NCBI GenBank assembly: GCA_021513695.1
Contig: CP084166.1
Location: forward strand, 1,056,001-1,120,000
Reading direction: 5' to 3'
Source of the DNA: Candidatus Heimdallarchaeum aukensis
GTDB taxonomy: Archaea > Asgardarchaeota > Heimdallarchaeia > Heimdallarchaeales > Heimdallarchaeaceae
DNA length: 64,000 nt
This document shows, piece by piece, positions 51,962-63,120 of the stretch (positions are counted from its first letter, which is position 1; each line of letters starts with the position of its first letter). Below the pieces are notes generated by a model. It had not been told where the DNA came from, made no database searches, and worked only from the letters and a program-made list of their open reading frames with translations. The position numbers were made by a program, and so were the translations under genes.

Positions 51962-52038
51962 GACCGGGTAGTCTAGCTTGGTACGATACATGCTTGGGGT
52001 GCATGTGATCCTGGGTTCGAATCCCAGCTCGGTCACCA
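51962..52038 (+). tRNA. tRNA-Pro (anticodon GGG), CCA encoded
   Basis: Manual fold: acceptor GACCGGG/CTCGGTC (one G-U pair), anticodon stem CATGC/GCATG with loop TTGGGGT (anticodon GGG, G37), T-arm CTGGG-TTCGAAT-CCCAG, discriminator A, then CCA. Confidence 0.85.
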
Positions 52039-52901: not shown

Positions 52902-53444
52902 TTACATTTTTCTTATTATTTCTATTGCTTCTTCTACTTCTTTTACTTTTATTATTTTTTCTCTTTCTTTTTCATCTATTTTTTCTTCTTTTGCTATTTT
53001 TTCGCTCCACCCACCTGATTTTTCTATTAATATTATTTTTTTACCATATTGCCACGCCATTGCTATTTCTGATAATGTCCCTGCTCCTCCTCCTATCCCT
53101 ACCACCACATCTGCGGACAGTACTATTATTTGATTTCTCGCGTAACTCATTCCTGTTGGTATTATGATATCCACGTATTCATTTGCTTGTTCTTTTTTTG
53201 TTGTCGGCAATATTCCTATAGTCATTCCTTCTCTGTATTTTTTTGCCTTTTTTGCTCCTTTACACACTTCTTTCATTATTCCGTCTTTTCCTCCACATAT
53301 TATTCTGCAATTATTTTCTACTAGTTTTTCTCCTAGTTCCTCTGCTATTTTTTTCAGTTCTTCTTTTATTTCTCCCCCTTTGCCTATTACTGCTACTTGC
53401 TTTATTTTATTCACCTTCGTCCCTCCAAATGTTATTATTTTCAA
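52902..53444 (-). CDS. LOG/TIGR00725-family (SLOG-type Rossmann) protein
   Basis: VAVIGKGG...CGGKDGIM...VVVGIGGGAGTLSEIAMAW matches the GGGxGTxxE signature of LOG-like/DprA-related Rossmann proteins. Confidence 0.65.
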   Translation of the reverse strand: MKIITFGGTKVNKIKQVAVIGKGGEIKEELKKIAEELGEKLVENNCRIICGGKDGIMKEVCKGAKKAKKYREGMTIGILPTTKKEQANEYVDIIIPTGMSYARNQIIVLSADVVVGIGGGAGTLSEIAMAWQYGKKIILIEKSGGWSEKIAKEEKIDEKEREKIIKVKEVEEAIEIIRKM

Positions 53445-54528: not shown

Positions 54529-55560
54529 TTGAAAAAGAACTATGATTTATCTGAATTATTTTCTGTTATCGACAATCAACTAGTTAACTCTCCTCTCAAA
54601 GCAATTGAACTTTTAGAAGATAATTCAGAGCACTTCGAGGACAATATCCTTTTTTTCTTGCGTTTAGGAGAACTTTATTTCAATCAAAAAAAATATGACA
54701 GTGCTTTACTTTCTTTTTCCCGAGCACTAGAGCTTGAACCAGAGAATGTGGAAGTATTATCACATATCAGTGATGTTTACATCAAGAAAAGAGATTACAC
54801 CCAAGCTGAAGTTGCTCTCCTAAAGGCTATAGAATATGAACCTAAGAACACTCTATTACTAAGTAAACTTGCTAATTTGTATTTTGATATTGGTAAATAT
54901 TACGAGTCTCAACAATTGCTCATTCAAGCAATAGAAGAAGAACCTAAAGCTGAATACTATTCTTTACTTGCTACTATCTATAAGAAAATGGATAATGATA
55001 TTGCTTGTTGGAACACTTTAGTAAAAGCAGAACAATTGTTTCCAGATGATATAAACATACTTAACCAGATTGGAGCTTATTATTTTGATTTGGACAATTT
55101 CTCAAAAGCTTTATCTTATTTTCAACGAGCTCTTTCTTTAGACCCTGAAAACCAGCATTCTCTTTTTCAGTTAGCAAAAACTTTTGAGAAAATGAACGAT
55201 CCTTACAATGCTATTGATATGTATTCAAAAATTGTAGAGATTAATCCTGATCATGCTTTAGCTTATTTTTATTTAGGAAAACTTTATTCTTCTCTTGGCG
55301 ACTTCGCTCAAGCACTTATTTGCTATTCTAAATGTTTAGAACTTGATCCTTCCTTCTCTGATGCTGCTTTAGATTTAGCTTCTATACACTGGGTATCAAA
55401 AGAATATAACAAAGCTTTATCTATTTTGAAAGAAGCATTAAAATTTTCAAAAGACAAGGAGATTTATAAGATGATGAGCAATATTTACGAAGAAACAGGC
55501 AATGAAAATAAAGCTAAATATTATAGAGAACTATCTAGAACAAATAATAACGAGGATTAA
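54529..55560 (+). CDS. TPR-repeat protein
   Basis: At least 8 tandem 34-aa repeats with the W-LG-Y/A-F-A-P pattern (AL..F..AL.L.P.N). Confidence 0.8.
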   Translation: MKKNYDLSELFSVIDNQLVNSPLKAIELLEDNSEHFEDNILFFLRLGELYFNQKKYDSALLSFSRALELEPENVEVLSHISDVYIKKRDYTQAEVALLKAIEYEPKNTLLLSKLANLYFDIGKYYESQQLLIQAIEEEPKAEYYSLLATIYKKMDNDIACWNTLVKAEQLFPDDINILNQIGAYYFDLDNFSKALSYFQRALSLDPENQHSLFQLAKTFEKMNDPYNAIDMYSKIVEINPDHALAYFYLGKLYSSLGDFAQALICYSKCLELDPSFSDAALDLASIHWVSKEYNKALSILKEALKFSKDKEIYKMMSNIYEETGNENKAKYYRELSRTNNNED

Positions 55561-55562
55561 GA

Positions 55563-55970
55563 TTGTTACTTCTTCCTATTGTCTCTTTTTCACAAGGACT
55601 AAAAGGTACATATCTTCTTTTCATTAGTCTAGACAAAAAATTAACTATTAACCTAAGTAATAAACAATTTTCCCTCGAAAAAGCTAACTATATTTATGTT
55701 GGGAGTGCTTTTGGCTCTGGAGGACTAAAATCTCGGGTTTCTCGCCATCTTTTAAAAACAAAGAATAAACGCTGGCACATAGATTTTTTGACTAGTTCTG
55801 ATCATTCTGAAGTTGTAGGAGTAGTTTATTTTATTAATCAAAAAATTGAGTGCTATTTAGGTAAGCTTCTTTCTACTTTCTCTTCTTTAGAACCTGTTTT
55901 TGGTTTTGGAAACTCTGATTGTAAAGAAAATTGTGATAGTCATTTATTTAAAATTGTAAAAAAGGAATAA
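55563..55970 (+). CDS. GIY-YIG (Uri) superfamily endonuclease, DUF123/COG1833-like
   Basis: YIYVGSAFGSGGLKSRVSRHL followed by RWHIDFL resembles the GxYxYxGSA...R...H and HWHIDYL blocks of archaeal DUF123 Uri nucleases. Begins 3 bp after the TPR gene stop. Confidence 0.5.
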   Translation: MLLLPIVSFSQGLKGTYLLFISLDKKLTINLSNKQFSLEKANYIYVGSAFGSGGLKSRVSRHLLKTKNKRWHIDFLTSSDHSEVVGVVYFINQKIECYLGKLLSTFSSLEPVFGFGNSDCKENCDSHLFKIVKKE

Positions 55971-56037: not shown

Positions 56038-56445
56038 ATGTTTATGGCAAGTGCAGTTGTCGAGCAATTACTTAATCTTGCTGTTGAAATAGTTCTATTC
56101 TATGCTGCAGCAGCGATTATAAGCGCTTCAATGTTTTCTAAAAAAGCTAAGAAGTGGAGTTGGGTTAACCTGATCATGGCTATTATTGTAAGCTTAGCTT
56201 GGACTTTTTCAATCAATCTCTTTAACGGGCGAGCCGCCGCAGCGACTTTCGGTATCATACTATTTATTATTTGTTTCTTCTTGTGGACTATTGCTGCTGA
56301 TGTTTCTGATAGACGTGCAGCATATGCAGCTCTCTTATCGCTTCTACTATGGTTCCTTTTCTGTTGGGTTTTAATTATTATCCTCCACTTATTCGAAGTA
56401 CACTTATTTGACAGTATACCTTACTTATTTAGCTATTTCACATAA
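56038..56445 (+). CDS. Small 4-TM membrane protein
   Basis: 135 aa, four hydrophobic helices, Ala-rich. Its 3' end overlaps the radical SAM gene's 3' end by 8 bp (convergent). Confidence 0.4.
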   Translation: MFMASAVVEQLLNLAVEIVLFYAAAAIISASMFSKKAKKWSWVNLIMAIIVSLAWTFSINLFNGRAAAATFGIILFIICFFLWTIAADVSDRRAAYAALLSLLLWFLFCWVLIIILHLFEVHLFDSIPYLFSYFT

Positions 56446-57859
56446 AGAAATCAACAAATTGGTTAATATCCAAAGAATAATTAATTTTATTCTTTACCTT
56501 TTTTTCTTTCTCATACTTATCAAAAAAAAGAGGAAAACGCTCTTTCACTGTATCAATGAAGTAAATAAGTAATTCTACCAACCTAATATTTAATTCACAC
56601 TCTATTTTGTTAACATCACCTTCAACAGCTTGCTTTTCTTTCCAATCAACACAAGGTCCTCCGCAAATATACCTTATGGGACAAGAAGAACATTCTTGTA
56701 TTAAATCTACAAGTTTCACTACATCGTTTTCAAGATCTTTCATGGACAAATTCTTTTTCCATTCTCCAAGTTTGTATTTTTTGTTTCCAATAAGGCTAGA
56801 ACAAGGATAGATTTCTGAATTTGGGCTTAAACTCAGAGCTGTTTTCCCTGCGGGGCAACGAGTAATCAGTTTTTCTCTTGATAATAGTCTATTCAAATAA
56901 CGTGAGATATAATCAGTAGGGCCGATTTTCTTTAAAAAGGATAGTAGTTCTCCTTCATTTAAGTTGAGTAAATGATCTACTAAATCTTCAACCCTTTCTA
57001 GAAAAGAGTCTAATTTTCTTTTATCCCATGCTCGATAATGATTATTATCTATTCTAAGAAGCCTTAAAGAAACATAGTCAAAATATTCTGAATAATAAGA
57101 ATAGAGAATGAACAAGTCTTCTATGTTAGGATGAACAGGTATAATTAAGTGTTTTACTACATTTTTCTTTACTAGAGACAAATTATCTATTACTCTTCTT
57201 TTTACTTTTTCATTTTCGATATCAAGTGTAACAGTCAAAAAACCATATTTATTTACAAAATCAATAAAACTTTGTTTTGGTGAAAAAAAGTTAGTGGAAG
57301 GGAGGAAATAGTAAATGGGAAAAGAGTATTTATTTTTAATCTGTTCAATAAACAGAACCATTTCATTAAAATATTCAAAGTTAAGCGTAATTTCACTTGT
57401 ATAGAAAAAGCTTATTCCTAGCGCTGTTTCTGATTTAGCTTTCCTTTTTAAATCTGCAAAATGTATAATTATTTCTTTAGCTCTTTCTACATCTAACTTT
57501 TCGTTCTCTTTTTTTCTCTCATTTCTTGCATAACAAAACCAACAATTTAAATTACATTCATTTGAAGGATTAATTACCAAATGGTCAAAAGTAACAATTT
57601 CTTTATCGAAACTTGCTCTTTCTTTCTCAGTTTCTACAATAAATTTTCTTTTCTTTAACAATCCCATTTGTGTTAGGATATTTTGATACTCTTTTTCTGA
57701 ATAATACTCCTTTAAGTCCTTTAAAGACAAAAATCTTTTCTTTTCAGAACATAACTCTGAATTACTAATTCTCCAAAAAAATCTAGTTTCAGGAGTATAA
57801 AGATAGGATTTACCATTATAAGAAAAAATCAAGATGTTAGTATTTTCTAGATTTAGCAT
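56438..57859 (-). CDS. Radical SAM enzyme with C-terminal SPASM domain and ~100-aa N-terminal extension (peptide-maturase-like)
   Basis: CxxxCxxC at CNLNCWFCYA. C-terminal Cys cluster CSSCPIRYICGGPCVDW is typical of SPASM/twitch auxiliary Fe-S domains. The N-terminal extension precedes the core, as RiPP recognition elements do. Confidence 0.8.
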   Translation of the reverse strand: MLNLENTNILIFSYNGKSYLYTPETRFFWRISNSELCSEKKRFLSLKDLKEYYSEKEYQNILTQMGLLKKRKFIVETEKERASFDKEIVTFDHLVINPSNECNLNCWFCYARNERKKENEKLDVERAKEIIIHFADLKRKAKSETALGISFFYTSEITLNFEYFNEMVLFIEQIKNKYSFPIYYFLPSTNFFSPKQSFIDFVNKYGFLTVTLDIENEKVKRRVIDNLSLVKKNVVKHLIIPVHPNIEDLFILYSYYSEYFDYVSLRLLRIDNNHYRAWDKRKLDSFLERVEDLVDHLLNLNEGELLSFLKKIGPTDYISRYLNRLLSREKLITRCPAGKTALSLSPNSEIYPCSSLIGNKKYKLGEWKKNLSMKDLENDVVKLVDLIQECSSCPIRYICGGPCVDWKEKQAVEGDVNKIECELNIRLVELLIYFIDTVKERFPLFFDKYEKEKKVKNKINYSLDINQFVDFFM

Positions 57860-58059
57860 ACAGATCCTGTCTCTTCATAGTCAGCTTCTTCATCATCACT
57901 TTCTTCATCTTGCATAAAGAAAGCTACTTTATCTAACGCAGAATTTTTATCTATAAATTTGCCCAACCTTTTATTCTTTTTAGTATCATAAACCACCCAC
58001 CACCCATCGCTTTCATCTCTGTAAATTTCAAAATCCCCACACTTTTCCCTTTCTGACAT
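57853..58059 (-). CDS. 68-aa highly acidic small protein ending in Cys; candidate substrate/precursor peptide of the radical SAM-SPASM enzyme
   Basis: MSEREKCGDFEIYRDESDGWWVVYDTKKNKRLGKFIDKNSALDKVAFFMQDEESDDEEADYEETGSVC. The stop overlaps the radical SAM start by 7 bp. Confidence 0.45.
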   Translation of the reverse strand: MSEREKCGDFEIYRDESDGWWVVYDTKKNKRLGKFIDKNSALDKVAFFMQDEESDDEEADYEETGSVC

Positions 58060-58250
58060 ATAGCAAAGTTCAGTTCAATATTTTAAAAATTTTTAGATAA
58101 CTAGCTTCTTATACTTACGAATAATTTTTATTAATTAAAACAAAGAATAGTAATAACAGATATTATTTAACTACTGTTAAGTAATTTAATTAAGATAAAA
58201 ATCAACTATATTTAGAAATTATCAGATAGTGTAATAAGGAGTAAATAAGA

Positions 58251-59762
58251 TTGACCAATGAGGAAATAGAGCAATTAAATCAAGTTAATTTGTTAATATA
58301 TCAAAATAAAGATTTTTTTTCTTCAGATATTTTTCCTACAGAAATCATAGAAGATTCAAAACGTAAAGAGATTAAAAAAGACATAAAGGAATTATTAAAT
58401 GTTGATTTCTTTACTAAAAGTGAGATTTACCCTCTTGTTAGTTATTTCAAGGGGTGGAACTATTCAACTAAAACTTTTTCTACCGAGAATCTTTTTGCGA
58501 TAAGAAAAAATAATGAATCATCTAGTTTGGTTAATATAACACTAATTAAAGAAGAGGTTAATTTAATTAAGTCTCTTCAAGAGATCGGTTTTATTCTTGA
58601 TACACTTGATGGTATTTATAATAAAATCGTCCTATTACAATCTCAGCTCTCAACAATGGAAAGAAGTAAAGAAGAAGAACCTTATTTAGAATTAGAAAAA
58701 AAACTCGACCTCCTTGGAAAATACTATCATTGGATGCTTTCTGAAGAGAAGTCTTTGTCTACTAAAGAAAAAGAAAACATAGTCCAAAAAACAATGTTAA
58801 CAACTGTTCTTTTACTTAGATTAAAAATTCGTTCAGATAGACTTCAATGTTTAGGTGCTTGTAATAAAACTTTCTCAAAAGAAGAATATGCTTCAAAGGA
58901 AGATTGTGACTGTAAAGGTGAAATTGTTTCTGCCCCACCATATTTTGAAATAACTGATATTTCATTTGTTTATCCTGAACAATATAGCGACATAATTCAA
59001 GAAGAAAGGGAATCTTCACCTAAAGGGATTATCGAAAAAGTCAATCGGGCGACTTTTCCTTATCCTCTATTATTATTATTGAACCAAATTAATCATTCAT
59101 ACTTCAGTAAAAATCTAATATTTCCAAAGTATAGTCTTTGGGAATATACAAGTACAAGAGACATAACAAAAATCAATTTTGACTTCTTATCGATAACAGA
59201 TACTGAAGCTTTCTTAGTAGCTTATGTTAGTGATTCAAGATTTTATCATGAAAATTTAGAATCCTCGGTAATAATTCCTGTTCTCTCAAGAAAAATAACA
59301 AGTAATCTTAAAGAAGGATATAGTTGGCATTCTACTATAGAAAATACTCAAATAAATCATTGGAAGATTACACCGTTCATTCCTCTCTCTGATATTAGAA
59401 AATACATGAAGTTAGAAGACATTCGATTAATAAAAGTTGAAGAAAAAACAGAAGAAGTTTTAGATAAAATAACTCAAGAAGAGGAAATACCACTTTCCCA
59501 AAGTCAATTAGAAGAAAAAGAAGATAATAAAGAGAAAATAGTTGAATTTCAAGAGGAGAGCATAACAAGGCCTTTAGAAAAAAAAGTTGTTTATGGATCT
59601 AGAATTAATGTTATAAAAAGAGAAGAAGAAAAAGAAGAAATAGAAATTCCACAGTTTGAAAGACCTATTGGAGAACAAGAAACTACAAAGCTGGAAGAAC
59701 AAGAAACTACAAAGCTGGAAGAACAAGAAGAACAAAAAGAGGAGGAAGAGAACAATGAGTAA
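58251..59762 (+). CDS. Hypothetical K/E-rich protein with C-terminal tandem QETTKLEE repeats
   Basis: 503-aa ORF (TTG start in track). A 24-bp tandem duplication at 59664-59711 encodes the repeated EQETTKLE. Confidence 0.45.
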   Translation: MTNEEIEQLNQVNLLIYQNKDFFSSDIFPTEIIEDSKRKEIKKDIKELLNVDFFTKSEIYPLVSYFKGWNYSTKTFSTENLFAIRKNNESSSLVNITLIKEEVNLIKSLQEIGFILDTLDGIYNKIVLLQSQLSTMERSKEEEPYLELEKKLDLLGKYYHWMLSEEKSLSTKEKENIVQKTMLTTVLLLRLKIRSDRLQCLGACNKTFSKEEYASKEDCDCKGEIVSAPPYFEITDISFVYPEQYSDIIQEERESSPKGIIEKVNRATFPYPLLLLLNQINHSYFSKNLIFPKYSLWEYTSTRDITKINFDFLSITDTEAFLVAYVSDSRFYHENLESSVIIPVLSRKITSNLKEGYSWHSTIENTQINHWKITPFIPLSDIRKYMKLEDIRLIKVEEKTEEVLDKITQEEEIPLSQSQLEEKEDNKEKIVEFQEESITRPLEKKVVYGSRINVIKREEEKEEIEIPQFERPIGEQETTKLEEQETTKLEEQEEQKEEEENNE

Positions 59763-61038
59763 AATATTTCAACTAACAAGTCATTTGAAATACGTTCCCA
59801 AAGACACTATTGATTTGATTAGTGAGTTTGATCAATTATTCTCATCGTTTAAATCTCAAATAAAGAAATTTATCTTAACTCAACCTACTTTTCTTCAAGA
59901 GATTAGAAATCAAATTAAATCAGAGATAGGATTCCTTTCTCCTCAGCAAAAGAATATGGCTTTAGCTTTATATGGTATTATTATCACAGAAGATATTCTA
60001 AAGGAATATTCTCCTTCTCAATACGTAAATGATATTTCTTTTCTCCTAGAAGCTACAGAAAAGAAGAACAAATGCACAGATGACGAATTTATTGGAATTG
60101 TTACAACCTACATCAATTGCTTAAAAGTAGCTCAAACATCTACTAATGCCGTTATCAACAGTTTCATTGAATTAAAAGGTGTTGGAATTGATGATGAAAT
60201 AATAACTGGAATATTAATCAGAAGATACTATTACTATATTTTTACTGAGATTAATGAAATGTTTGAGATTGCAGAGTTTCCTATTGATATAAGATGGATT
60301 ACAGCTTTGCTTGCTTATTCATTAGAAACAGCTGTTCAAAAAACAAAACAGCAGGATGATTCGAAATCCATTTCTGGGATTTATCGTAAGATATTAAACA
60401 AGTATCCCCCTTGTGATGGTTCAAAATATATTTTTGATTTGATTTATGAATTTGTAATCAAAGAGTACTATGACATATTAGATAGAACCTTCAAACAGAG
60501 AGCAGAACTAAAGAAAATTGAAAGAGGGCTTTTAAAGAAAGAAGACTCTTCTAAGGAAGTAAAAGAAGCATCCAAAGAAGAAGCGAAAAGAAAAACAGAA
60601 CATCTCATTACAGTTATTGAAAAGGCTATTTCTGAAACTTTGAAATTTAACAGGGATTTTGACGAAAGAAAGCGTAAAAATTTGGAAGCAAATATTGAAA
60701 CATCATTAAAAAGGCTAGCTTTTGACGAATTTGGTGTTCAAGATATAGCTGATGAGGAAAAATACATGACCTATCTGTTAGAAAGTTGGTTCAAGTTATT
60801 TTTAGAATGGCCTCAAATGGTTATTCCTATTATAAACTTGACTGCTTACTCACGATTCCTAAATGATCCTGTAAATTATATTAAAAAGCACAAAGATGAA
60901 ATTGAAAGGCAACTTCAATTTAAAATAAGAAGACAAATAGGAGGGGAAAGAATGACACCCAAGAATTTATCTGAAGCTTTTTCAAAACTACTTTATGAAA
61001 TTCTTAACAATTCTTCTGTTAGAACACTTACAATTTAA
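59755..61038 (+). CDS. Hypothetical protein, translationally coupled to the upstream gene (start reassigned to MSKIFQ)
   Basis: An ATG at 59755 overlaps the upstream stop by 8 bp and is preceded by GGAGGA at 59741-59746. The longer track ORF would overlap 107 bp out of frame. Confidence 0.45.
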   Translation: MSKIFQLTSHLKYVPKDTIDLISEFDQLFSSFKSQIKKFILTQPTFLQEIRNQIKSEIGFLSPQQKNMALALYGIIITEDILKEYSPSQYVNDISFLLEATEKKNKCTDDEFIGIVTTYINCLKVAQTSTNAVINSFIELKGVGIDDEIITGILIRRYYYYIFTEINEMFEIAEFPIDIRWITALLAYSLETAVQKTKQQDDSKSISGIYRKILNKYPPCDGSKYIFDLIYEFVIKEYYDILDRTFKQRAELKKIERGLLKKEDSSKEVKEASKEEAKRKTEHLITVIEKAISETLKFNRDFDERKRKNLEANIETSLKRLAFDEFGVQDIADEEKYMTYLLESWFKLFLEWPQMVIPIINLTAYSRFLNDPVNYIKKHKDEIERQLQFKIRRQIGGERMTPKNLSEAFSKLLYEILNNSSVRTLTI

Positions 61039-61040
61039 AA

Positions 61041-62147
61041 TTATATTTTTTCTTTAGATATAGCTAATTTTTCAATTTTTTCTTGGATTACATTAACACC
61101 TATTCCATTTTCTTTAGGAACCCCTAACTCTCCGTTATTGTCTAGTTTGAAGATAGGATCAATTATGTATTCTGTAAAGTATCTTTCACTTTCACTTATA
61201 TCATTTGGTAAGGTGAAATTTTTCATACTCGCTACTGCAACATTCTTTGCTCTACCAATCCCTGTTTCTAACATCCCTCCAACCCATAGAGGTACTTTGA
61301 ATTCTTCTGCCAATCTATGAATTTCTAAAGTTTCAGTTATTCCTCCCACTCGTGAAGGTTTAATATTGATTATTCTTGTTGCATCCATTTCTAAAGCATG
61401 TTTAGCATCATCAAAACTTTTTATTGACTCGTCTAGACATATGGGGGTAGATATCATTTTTTGTAATTTTGAATGCTCTATTATATCCTTATAATGTAAA
61501 GGCTGTTCGATCATCATTAAATCATATTTATCCAATTTTTTGAATATTTCAGCATCTTTCAAACTATAAGCTGCATTAGCATCTACCATCAAACCTAAAT
61601 CTGGAAAATGATCTCTTATTTGTTTTATTATCTCTACATCCCAACCAGGTTCTATTTTGATTTTTACACGTTTGTATTTTTTTTCAATTGCATATTCTAT
61701 TTTTTGAAGTAAAACTGCGAAATCATTTTCAATCCCTAAGCTAATTCCAGAAGGAATTTTGTTTTTCGTTCCTCCTAGAAGCTCTGAAAGAGATTTACCT
61801 TTTATCGTACCATATAAATCCCACAAAGCATCTTCTACACAAGCTTTTGCCATTGGGTTTCCACGTATTTTAGAAACAATAGAAGTAAAATCTTTTGGAT
61901 GCTCAATTTCTTTTTCTTTTTTCAACCATGGGCCAATGAATTTCTTAATAATGTATGTAACTGAATTATTTGTTTCTGGGGAATACCAAGGTCCTGTATC
62001 AGTTACACTTTCTCCCCACCCACATAGGTCTCCAGATTGAAGTTTAGTTAAGACAATTTCTCTTGTTTTTTGAACGCCAAAACTTGTTCTAAAAGGTCTT
62101 TTCAAGTTCATAATTATTTTATAAATAGTTACAGAGTCTATTTTCAT
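61041..62147 (-). CDS. Enolase-superfamily enzyme, MR/MLE subgroup (o-succinylbenzoate synthase or N-acyl-amino-acid racemase-like)
   Basis: N-terminal capping domain (IYKIIMNLKRPFRTSFG), KxK (VKIKIEPGWD) and metal ligands D (MVDANAAY), E (MIEQPL), D (LDES). Confidence 0.8.
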   Translation of the reverse strand: MKIDSVTIYKIIMNLKRPFRTSFGVQKTREIVLTKLQSGDLCGWGESVTDTGPWYSPETNNSVTYIIKKFIGPWLKKEKEIEHPKDFTSIVSKIRGNPMAKACVEDALWDLYGTIKGKSLSELLGGTKNKIPSGISLGIENDFAVLLQKIEYAIEKKYKRVKIKIEPGWDVEIIKQIRDHFPDLGLMVDANAAYSLKDAEIFKKLDKYDLMMIEQPLHYKDIIEHSKLQKMISTPICLDESIKSFDDAKHALEMDATRIINIKPSRVGGITETLEIHRLAEEFKVPLWVGGMLETGIGRAKNVAVASMKNFTLPNDISESERYFTEYIIDPIFKLDNNGELGVPKENGIGVNVIQEKIEKLAISKEKI

Positions 62148-62277: not shown

Positions 62278-63120
62278 TTAAAGTTCAAAATTTTTTTGCA
62301 GGACATAATAAGACTCTATTTCCTCTGGATTCTTTATTACATAGAGATCCACGATTGTATAATTCTTCTTCAAGTAATGTTGGAAAACTTTTCTTGTCTT
62401 CATTCTCCATTCTATTGCTAAAGAGTTATTTTCTTTCTTTATTTCATTAATGTTCGGGGGTATTCTTACAAATAGTAAATCTTTGCTAGCATTTAGTTTC
62501 AAATCCTTAGGGTGTAAAAATTTGTCTTTTTTTTCAGCAGATAAGACTAAATTTACAGATTTTAATGAGCTAGAATAATCATCAAATTTACTTTGAAGTC
62601 TATCTTCCACTCTTCTGCTTTCTATATACCAGTTTACATAGAATCTATCTGTCGGTAATCCTATGTTCTCTGCATCATGCATTTCTCCCCAGTAATTCTC
62701 CTTGTAAGTGTTACATACCGCCCCTAACTTGTGAAGATTTAGAAAAGCGTTCTTGCTTTGTAGAGGATCAAAAGTCCAATTAATTAGTTTAAACCCTTTT
62801 TTTATAGCCCATTTTCTCTGCTCTAGCTTTAACTTAAAACCTAAGCCTAGATTCTGATAATCTTTTTTAACTGCGTTATGGTGTGAGTAAATGAAAAACC
62901 CATATTCTGAAAGATTTCCAATCCATCCCCACACATAACCTATAAGTTCATCCTTTTTATATGCACCAATGAGAACAGCGCCACTCCTTTTAGTTGCTTT
63001 AAATAATCTCCTTGGAACTAATTCTAGATCAGGCATACCCCAAGCTTCTCTCTCAATAGCTTCTATTTCACTGAAACTTTTTTCATCTTCTATCTCTTTG
63101 AAAATGATTTCACTAGACAT
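62278..63120 (-). CDS. GNAT-like acyltransferase-fold protein
   Basis: Motif-A-like QNLGLGFKLKLEQRKWAIKKG. 280 aa. Confidence 0.45.
   Translation of the reverse strand: MSSEIIFKEIEDEKSFSEIEAIEREAWGMPDLELVPRRLFKATKRSGAVLIGAYKKDELIGYVWGWIGNLSEYGFFIYSHHNAVKKDYQNLGLGFKLKLEQRKWAIKKGFKLINWTFDPLQSKNAFLNLHKLGAVCNTYKENYWGEMHDAENIGLPTDRFYVNWYIESRRVEDRLQSKFDDYSSSLKSVNLVLSAEKKDKFLHPKDLKLNASKDLLFVRIPPNINEIKKENNSLAIEWRMKTRKVFQHYLKKNYTIVDLYVIKNPEEIESYYVLQKNFEL

Follow-up and report, generated by a model that had tools for sequence, protein, structure and literature searches.

A radical SAM/SPASM enzyme and a small Cys-terminated protein form a conserved gene pair and candidate maturation system in Heimdallarchaeota

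Introduction

The combination of a SPASM-type radical S-adenosylmethionine (SAM) maturase, bearing a recognition element (RRE) for peptides that are synthesized on ribosomes and modified post-translationally (RiPPs), with an adjacent precursor gene is well known as a kind of system. CteB, TigE, SuiB and SkfB are known RiPP maturases. QhpD, a SPASM radical SAM enzyme, forms Cys-to-Asp/Glu thioethers in a small protein that remains a functional protein. In the NxxcB-NxxcA system, a beta-thioether is formed between the Cys and the upstream Asn of an N-x-x-C motif. MftA ends in Gly-Val-Tyr, and MftC decarboxylates the terminal Tyr and links it to the C-beta of the Val. To our knowledge, almost all radical SAM/SPASM maturases known to have a fused recognition domain come from bacterial pathways to peptide natural products or from a small number of cofactor pathways. 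Here we analyze two adjoining genes of the archaeon Candidatus Heimdallarchaeum aukensis, one encoding a radical SAM/SPASM enzyme with an N-terminal RRE-like domain and the other a small protein that ends in Cys. The pair lies in a stretch of 64,000 nucleotides (contig CP084166.1, positions 1,056,001 to 1,120,000), which we call the window and number from its first letter.

The locus resembles the systems of CteB/ScfB with CteA (SCIFF) and of PapB with PapA in several respects: an N-terminal RRE is followed by a radical SAM domain and a SPASM domain with three plus four Cys, the presumed precursor is encoded immediately upstream, and its Cys lies near acidic residues. It differs from them in the tail, whose only Cys is the very last residue, whereas the precursors of those systems have six Cys (SCIFF) or CX3D repeats; any acceptor would thus be N-terminal to the Cys. 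Furthermore, a conserved and folded domain makes up the leader region, and the pair occurs in archaea and is syntenic across one lineage. A comparison with QhpD and QhpC is also instructive. The QhpD model is matched by all 14 members of the enzyme family, and an acidic, Cys-containing substrate would be analogous; however, no qhpA, qhpB, qhpE-like or dehydrogenase subunit genes are found nearby, and the substrate here has one or two Cys. By description only, the E-S-V-C tail of the majority of small proteins shares with NxxcA the acceptor-x-x-Cys spacing and an acceptor N-terminal to the Cys, but the Asn is replaced by Glu, and by Gly in the window's own clade. As in MftC and MftA, the residues presumed to be modified are at the extreme C-terminus and follow a beta-branched residue (GVY in MftA, SVC here), and the distribution suggests a role inside the cell and not that of an antibiotic. 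In contrast to that system, the RRE is fused and not a separate MftB, mftD, mftE and mftF are absent, and the terminal residue is Cys, not Tyr.

What is new at this locus is the enzyme subfamily, the design of the precursor (an acidic linker joins a folded mini-domain to a terminal SVC) and the archaeal, apparently core-genome setting. An earlier, sequence-only reading of the window had proposed that the pair might be undescribed, and a literature search indeed found no description of it.

Architecture and classification of the enzyme

Three open reading frames (ORFs) occupy positions 56038-58059 of the window, two on the minus strand and one on the plus strand (Table 1). The coordinates, the lengths of the 473-residue and 68-residue ORFs and their 7-bp overlap, as first read from the letters, were all recovered in the ORF listing. 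The junction reads gtATGcTAA, and the ATG of the enzyme gene falls within the Val-Cys codons of the small ORF.

The radical SAM motif CxxxCxxC, which the sequence-only reading had pointed out, consists of C102, C106 and C109. An alignment of the 14 family members contains exactly ten invariant Cys: these three and seven in the SPASM domain (C335, C353, C390, C393, C399, C403 and C421). The segment CSSCPIRYICGGPC spans C390-C403. The C-terminal Cys cluster had been described as SPASM-type from the letters alone; the seven-Cys motif and a TIGR04085 (SPASM) score of 43.4 bits, above the cut-off of 27, agree with this. The Pfam Radical_SAM profile (PF04055) gives 27.4 bits for the window protein, slightly under the gathering score of 29.5. 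Membership in the radical SAM superfamily therefore rests on the invariant motif, the NCBIfam matches and a fold that matches radical SAM structures.

Compared with solved structures, the family profile has its best match in CteB, the SCIFF thioether maturase (5wgg/5why; E 1.8e-23). The alignment begins by pairing residue 7 of the query with residue 6 of the chain and therefore covers the N-terminal peptide-recognition domain of CteB. An N-terminal extension of about 100 residues had been noted at the position where RREs sit, and its first ~92 residues align with the CteB RRE. The radical SAM motif is aligned with CNLRCKYC of CteB. In CteB, the radical SAM cluster is bound by C104/C108/C111, auxiliary cluster 1 (AC1) by C344, C362 and C413, and auxiliary cluster 2 (AC2) by C400, C403, C409 and C432 (PMC10177961). 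The seven SPASM Cys pair one-to-one with C344/C362/C413 and C400/C403/C409/C432, which places C335, C353 and C403 as the three AC1-like ligands and C390, C393, C399 and C421 as the four AC2-like ligands. The count and alignment of the Cys thus fit the 3+4 scheme of CteB, a motif that is also present in enzymes of other chemistries. In PapB and Tte1186, the substrate Cys, when replaced by selenocysteine, binds an iron of the enzyme, assigned to AC1 in Tte1186 (PMC10177961). A three-Cys AC1, as predicted here by alignment, is compatible with binding of a terminal thiolate.

The AlphaFold2 model of the enzyme has a predicted local distance difference test score (pLDDT) of 83.8 and a predicted template-modeling (TM) score of 0.88. 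The modeled RRE-like region contains strands at residues 10-14, 17-21 and 28-32 and a helix at 55-70, followed by the barrel and the SPASM helices. A Foldseek search with this model returns CteB (5wgg) first, with TM-scores of 0.69/0.73 over 469 columns. The runners-up are TigE, SuiB, ChlB and SkfB, the ChlB structure being one crystallized with the leader region of its precursor; these matches support a full-length RRE-radical SAM-SPASM architecture. The enzyme therefore has the RRE-fused maturase architecture of the CteB/SuiB/SkfB type, and peptide binding by the N-terminal domain is predicted from the alignment and the model.

NCBIfam was scanned with the window protein (25 matches listed) and with the 14 family members (25 most widely matched families). 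Across all 14 members, the strongest and most widespread matches are to PapB, the nif11-peptide maturase, the SCIFF maturase, CbpB and QhpD. Thioethers are formed by three of these five families, and the nearest relatives of the enzyme are likewise thioether-forming. The scores to these families are all four to seven times under the cut-off. The top match of the window protein is the nif11-like peptide maturase, at 74 bits.

The individual subfamilies do not fit. The SCIFF maturase ScfB/CteB (TIGR03974) scores 70.8 bits against a cut-off of 425, and the partner protein has two Cys, one of them in the tail, and not the six Cys in 45 residues of a SCIFF precursor. The PapB family (NF047865) scores 70.4 bits against 340, with a best E-value in the family of 1.2e-23; the small protein lacks a C-x3-D/E motif, its Cys being the last residue. 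QhpD (TIGR03906) scores 62.4 bits against 453, and the neighboring genes include no qhp dehydrogenase genes. MftC (TIGR03962) scores 16.8 bits against 265, the tail ends in SVC and not GVY, and mft-like neighbors are absent. The anaerobic sulfatase-maturating enzyme anSME (TIGR03942, cut-off 349) is not among the matches listed for the window protein and is matched weakly by 7 of the 14 members (best E 1.2e-11); the small protein has no (C/S)-x-(P/A)-x-R motif of an anSME substrate. PqqE is absent among the matches listed for the window protein and the 14 members, and the tail lacks a family-conserved E-x3-Y. The sequence-only reading had named classification as an anSME or a cofactor-biosynthesis enzyme as the outcome that would count against it; instead, the best matches are RiPP maturases, all far below their cut-offs. 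Because no equivalog cut-off is reached, the best matches are all RiPP maturases and CteB is the closest solved relative, the enzyme is, by profile comparison, a separate, lineage-restricted subfamily of RRE-bearing SPASM peptide maturases.

The small protein

The small ORF is under purifying selection. Its ratio of nonsynonymous to synonymous substitution rates (dN/dS) is 0.09-0.13 against a 90%-identical orthologue, and the median is 0.16 over 25 more distant pairs. Judged by this substitution pattern, the small ORF is a real gene. A TATA-like tttttaaaatat is found ~19-30 nt 5' of its ATG, a position which suggests that the 5' leader is short or absent. The G+C content of the window is ~30%. 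Scans for sigma-70 promoters and for terminators used bacterial models and are uninformative for archaea.

A profile built from 22 aligned ORFs upstream of enzyme relatives found 77 homologous clusters of 59-78 residues, all with E <= 4.5e-20 and from Heimdallarchaeota-type sources. This search gave nothing weaker than E 4.5e-20, with matches up to E = 1 allowed. A word-indexed search with the window's small-protein sequence alone found one cluster. An exhaustive HMMER scan of 1.84 billion representatives found three representatives of the family, all ending in SVC. Its marginal matches, AP2-like and FG-GAP-like repeat proteins, were taken as resemblances of fold or motif and not as members of the family.

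Conservation and the structure model divide the protein into two parts. Residues 1-51 are modeled as a four-stranded sheet with one helix, in which C7 (with one exception), G8, W21, G33-K-F35, A41 and L42 are near-invariant. This part is possibly a recognition, or leader-like, domain. Its fold is compatible with the DUF2188, DUF7387, UPF0339 and AP2-type mini-domains, and one member is labeled 'DUF2188 domain-containing' in the database. The Pfam profiles of DUF2188 and DUF7387 do not match the window protein and match 9-10 of 47 members below threshold (best E 2.6e-5). None of these four families is defined by an acidic, Cys-ended tail or by linkage to a radical SAM gene, unlike the small protein.

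In contrast to the N-terminal domain, the tail (residues 52-68) is predicted to be disordered, with pLDDT below 55. It is rich in Asp and Glu and varies in length by insertion of acidic residues. The C-terminal S-[V/T/I]-C stands directly before the stop codon in 76 of the 77 clusters, and the 77th looks truncated. S66 and C68 are invariant and E63 nearly so; the family consensus is E-x-E-S-V-C. Glu is usual at positions -3 and -5 from the end, and the window's clade has a longer tail with Gly at -3. The Val and Cys codons of the terminal motif differ between loci, and the motif is therefore conserved at the level of protein. Conservation of Val-Cys as a by-product of the overlapping start codon was considered and rejected: in most loci the ATG lies 5 nt past the stop codon, and SVC is kept. 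The description of the 68-residue protein given by the sequence-only reading holds for its acidic, Cys-ended half; the N-terminal 51 residues form a conserved folded mini-domain and not a floppy leader.

Linkage and distribution of the pair

Starting from the enzyme, from the small protein or from a neighboring gene, we found more than 30 loci with enough upstream DNA. In every one of them, the small ORF lies directly upstream of the enzyme gene on the same strand. The stop and start codons overlap by 7 bp, by 1 bp in one locus, or, in most relatives, are arranged as stop, 5 nt and ATG. Small-ORF homologues occurring away from radical SAM genes had been proposed as evidence that would refute the pairing; in these loci and in the HMMER scan the small ORF was never found apart from the enzyme. 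An adjacent precursor-like gene is a hallmark of RRE-dependent maturases, and the small protein, from its position, would be the substrate.

In a collection of 5.8 billion proteins, relatives of the enzyme fall into 14 clusters at 99-34% identity, with the next match at E 7e-4. All clusters with a named source are labeled Heimdallarchaeota or Heimdallarchaeaceae. A scan of species-representative genomes found at least 23 loci, almost all labeled Heimdallarchaeota among the matches listed. The complete genome of Ca. Heimdallarchaeum endolithica PR6 has a relative of the enzyme at 75% identity. The matches listed also include a few 'uncultured archaeon' bins, one 'Promethearchaeati' and one Thorarchaeota; the lower matches listed are bacterial only, at ~20-40% identity, many of them short segments and mostly from Bacteroidales. 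The phyletic range so defined is a lower bound. The Thorarchaeota-labeled bin contains locus L031 (JBHLQZ010000207.1), which carries the pair. Its gene order and sequences match the Heimdallarchaeota loci, and the label may therefore result from mis-binning.

The two families share the same narrow phyletic range. Because synteny holds across radical SAM protein identities of 32-75%, the pair has apparently been inherited vertically across the lineage. It is apparently part of a syntenic gene set of one Asgard lineage and not a sporadic biosynthetic cluster. The enzyme seems to be a constant element of the gene set in a lineage of the Asgards, which are studied for their closeness to eukaryotes.

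Function of the pair and alternatives

With moderate confidence, we favor the interpretation that the two genes encode a dedicated maturase and its substrate: the enzyme would modify the C-terminal tail of the small protein, most likely by forming a thioether from the terminal Cys, and the product would remain a small protein in modified form. Observed are the gene pair and how strictly it co-occurs, the architecture and Cys scheme of the enzyme and the conservation of the tail. Several features point to this interpretation: the enzyme has an RRE-radical SAM-SPASM architecture, the small ORF is placed and coupled as a precursor gene would be, the tail of its product is predicted to be disordered and has an invariant end, and the two families strictly co-occur.

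We propose the following sequence of events. The 68-residue protein would be translated just before the enzyme and tightly coupled to it. The RRE-like domain would bind residues 1-51, allowing the flexible acidic tail to thread into the radical SAM/SPASM active site. There, the C-terminal Cys thiolate would bind the open iron of the three-Cys auxiliary cluster, and the 5'-deoxyadenosyl radical would take a hydrogen from a nearby residue of the tail, either one of the Glu at -3 and -5, the Ser at -2, or the beta-branched -1 residue. One thioether formed within the molecule would then close a small C-terminal ring. The thioether is the most likely chemistry by homology, and we hold to it loosely. 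The product would most likely be kept in the cell, and not released as an antibiotic-type peptide, because no protease or exporter is encoded nearby, the small protein has a conserved, folded N-terminal domain, and the locus shows synteny and apparently vertical inheritance across the lineage.

Several points weigh against this interpretation. Adjacency and coupling could reflect another kind of partnership, and synteny extends over the whole ~12-kb region, so that inherited gene order accounts for some of the co-occurrence. The enzyme is far below every curated cut-off for thioether maturases, for example 70 against 340-425 bits. The canonical seven-Cys SPASM motif is common, and its presence alone does not imply that a thioether is formed. 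The chemistries of close structural neighbors are unrelated; one of these neighbors, SuiB, makes a Lys-Trp C-C bond. Another, TigE, makes cyclopropylglycine (PMC10878394). The acceptor is not fixed: the Glu at -3 is Gly in the window's clade, and the Glu at -5 is missing in two small proteins (P0051 and P0091). A Cys that is always the final residue is not needed by known thioether donors, and the free C-terminus may take part in the reaction; that the Cys is always last, after a beta-branched residue, suggests that the free carboxy-terminus matters, as that of MftA does when mycofactocin is made. A folded 'leader' is also atypical for RRE-bound precursors. The folded domain, the synteny and the GTPase and second radical SAM genes that neighbor the pair in relatives (see below) together make 'protein or cofactor maturation' fit at least as well as 'natural-product RiPP'. 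Of the RiPP-like maturase/precursor pair proposed by the sequence-only reading, the pairing is therefore supported, and the natural-product character is no better a fit than protein or cofactor maturation.

If the favored interpretation is correct, the radical SAM repertoire would gain a new class of precursor and possibly a new C-terminal chemistry. The pair would represent an archaeal system of protein or cofactor maturation without a bacterial counterpart, and a function would be assigned to two 'hypothetical' gene families.

A more far-reaching proposal is put forward here tentatively. In Heimdallarchaeaceae-type Asgard archaea, a lineage-wide, apparently vertically inherited system may turn the free Ser-Val-Cys end of a small folded protein into a new C-terminal prosthetic group, for example a decarboxylated, cyclized cap bearing a thiol or thioether. 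Its role would be inside the cell, in redox reactions, metal handling or signaling, and might be connected with the small GTPase whose gene adjoins the pair in most relatives. The logic of such a system would be like that of mycofactocin or QhpC, and its chemistry would be new.

An alternative that we regard as unlikely is that the small protein is a precursor of a cofactor or prosthetic group in the style of mycofactocin or PQQ. The terminal Cys would be oxidatively decarboxylated, followed by C-C or C-S ring closure with the beta-branched residue at -1 or with Ser at -2. The altered end would then act as a redox-active group while still attached to the small protein, or an unlinked peptidase would cut it off. 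Consistent with this, 76 of 77 clusters end in Cys, preceded in every case by a beta-branched residue (V, T or I) and, at -2, by an invariant Ser, and the SVC end recalls the Gly-Val-Tyr of MftA. The lineage-wide synteny is as expected for a housekeeping function, and no exporter is nearby. In many relatives, a second radical SAM gene encoding a protein of 373-407 residues lies just downstream of the pair. This protein contains Fer4_12 and Radical_SAM domains and an N-terminal Cys-rich segment, and weakly matches glycyl-radical activases and the AmmeMemoRadiSam enzyme (48-54 bits, under the cut-offs); such an activase-like neighbor would suit cofactor assembly. The enzyme itself, however, has little affinity to MftC (16.8 bits against 265), and PqqE is not among its listed matches. 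Genes like those for MftB/D/E/F, PqqB/C/D or a peptidase are absent from the neighborhood, and a large, conserved, folded N-terminal domain is unnecessary in a throw-away precursor.

It is rather improbable, in our estimate, that the small protein is an accessory factor and not the substrate. It could be an adaptor that recruits another target, a regulator or plug whose terminal Cys caps the open iron of an auxiliary cluster, or a carrier of sulfur or metal, with the true substrate encoded elsewhere. That substrate might be a small Arf/Ras/Roc-type GTPase or another protein. Outside the genus Heimdallarchaeum, most loci have the GTPase gene directly upstream of the small ORF; in L077 and L079 it is on the pair's strand and ~55 nt away. 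The generic AP2-, UPF0339- or DUF2188-like binding fold of the N-terminal domain and the second nearly invariant Cys, C7, would also suit an accessory role. Nonetheless, the enzyme already has an RRE-like domain of its own, and the strongest conservation in the C-terminal half of the small protein is the end motif on a disordered tail, as in the core of a substrate. The window has neither the GTPase gene nor the second radical SAM gene, and the GTPase gene is also missing from the Heimdallarchaeum loci that retain the pair. A functional tie of the GTPase to the Cys-terminated protein is possible.

A secreted RiPP, acting as a signal or antimicrobial, is an alternative of low probability. Residues 1-51 would be a long leader like those of the Nif11 or NHLP type, and the core would be crosslinked, cut and exported by the products of genes elsewhere. 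The RRE-radical SAM-SPASM architecture is that of RiPP maturases, and a small membrane protein is often encoded beside the enzyme. Nif11-type precursors have long structured leaders, and the best NCBIfam match of the window protein is, as described above, the nif11-like peptide maturase. However, none of the more than 30 loci contains a gene for a peptidase, an ABC transporter or immunity, and the membrane protein is missing from a whole clade that retains the pair. There is no recognizable cleavage motif at the boundary between leader and core, and the tail varies in length by acidic insertions. The single copy, strict synteny and low dN/dS are also unlike the patchy distribution and fast evolution of antimicrobial RiPPs.

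That the two genes have no functional link and are neighbors through inherited gene order only is very unlikely: synteny on both sides of the pair reaches over ~12 kb in almost every locus, but the pair and its stop/start coupling are kept where the flanks are rearranged (L003, L077 and L079), the two families share a narrow phyletic range, and a small ORF just upstream of an RRE-bearing maturase occupies the standard position of a precursor.

Genomic context

The genes around the pair are listed in Table 1. In most loci, about 12 kb is syntenic and encodes SLOG, MR_MLE and GNAT proteins, two proteins designated u460 and u503, the pair, the four-transmembrane-segment (4-TM) protein, DUF123 and TPR proteins and u300, an unknown protein of 300 residues. 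In the window and in the more than 30 loci, no protease, transporter or immunity-type domain was identified among the neighbors. That no protease or transporter partner is recognizable in the window, as the sequence-only reading stated, thus extends to the neighborhoods of the relatives.

Table 1. Coordinates of the features discussed. Positions are those of the window, except where a locus of a relative (L number) is named.
Feature	Position	Strand	Basis or note
Small protein, presumed substrate, 68 aa	57853..58059	-	ORF listing; sequence MSEREKCGDFEIYRDESDGWWVVYDTKKNKRLGKFIDKNSALDKVAFFMQDEESDDEEADYEETGSVC
Small protein residues 1-51, four-stranded sheet and one helix	57907..58059	-	Structure model, conservation
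Small protein residues 52-68, disordered acidic tail ending E-T-G-S-V-C, presumed core	57856..57906	-	Model, conservation
Radical SAM/SPASM enzyme with N-terminal RRE-like domain, 473 aa	56438..57859	-	ORF listing, motifs, profiles, fold
RRE-like peptide-recognition domain, enzyme residues 1-92	57584..57859	-	CteB profile alignment, model, Foldseek
C102-x3-C106-x2-C109, radical SAM [4Fe-4S] motif	57533..57556	-	Invariant in 14 family members
SPASM domain, enzyme residues ~331-430	56570..56869	-	TIGR04085 score; seven invariant Cys
4-TM protein, 135 aa	56038..56445	+	ORF listing; Kyte-Doolittle
AT-rich divergent intergenic region	58060..58250	.	Sequence reading
u503 and u460, overlapping, lineage-restricted, divergent from the pair	58251..61038	+	Alignments
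u503	58251-59762	+	CxxxC...CxC zinc-ribbon-like motif
SLOG/LDcluster4 protein	52902-53444	-	
TPR protein	54529-55560	+	
DUF123	55563-55970	+	
Enolase-superfamily MR_MLE protein	61041-62147	-	
GNAT-type acetyltransferase	~62293-63120	-	
Small GTPase, locus L004	4182-4706	-	
Small GTPase, locus L077	3351-3947	+	
Small GTPase, locus L079	3417-3944	+	
Second radical SAM gene, 373-407 aa, locus L004	6940-8073	+	Just downstream of the pair in many relatives; also in L008, L077, L078
Second radical SAM gene, 373-407 aa, locus L079	6067-7290	+	

The 4-TM gene is convergent with the enzyme gene and overlaps its 3' end by 8 bp. Kyte-Doolittle analysis shows four hydrophobic segments in its 135-residue product, in agreement with the first description of this ORF. 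Most loci have the gene, the rearranged L003 among them; L007, L008, L011, L013, L028 and L029 lack it. Neither Pfam nor NCBIfam has a match to its product. Conservation is higher in the 4-TM protein than in the enzyme: between Heimdallarchaeum species the identities are 95-97% and 75%, respectively, and to L003 they are 78% and 42%. Several Trp residues of the 4-TM protein, W40, W42, W55 and W83 among them, are invariant, and the consensus motif is KKWSWLNLIMA.

On the other side of the pair, u503 has invariant, zinc-ribbon-like C200/C204/C219/C221 and, in this genus, an additional tail of acidic repeats (EQETTKLEEQETTKLEEQ). The conservation of u460 is high, and its start is probably at 59755. 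Neither has Pfam or Protein Data Bank relatives. The two genes are usually beside the pair, including in L003, and are not beside it in L079. The 4-TM protein, u503 and u460 were considered as missing partners and are not counted as established parts of the system: none has informative Pfam or Protein Data Bank relatives, u503 and u460 stand apart in L079, and the 4-TM gene is missing in one clade. Membership of u503 and u460 in the system is thus doubtful.

A role in peptide processing is suggested by none of the SLOG, TPR, DUF123, MR_MLE and GNAT neighbors. A tRNA-Pro (GGG) gene is located at 51962-52038 (+), and the short ORFs listed across this tRNA are translation artifacts.

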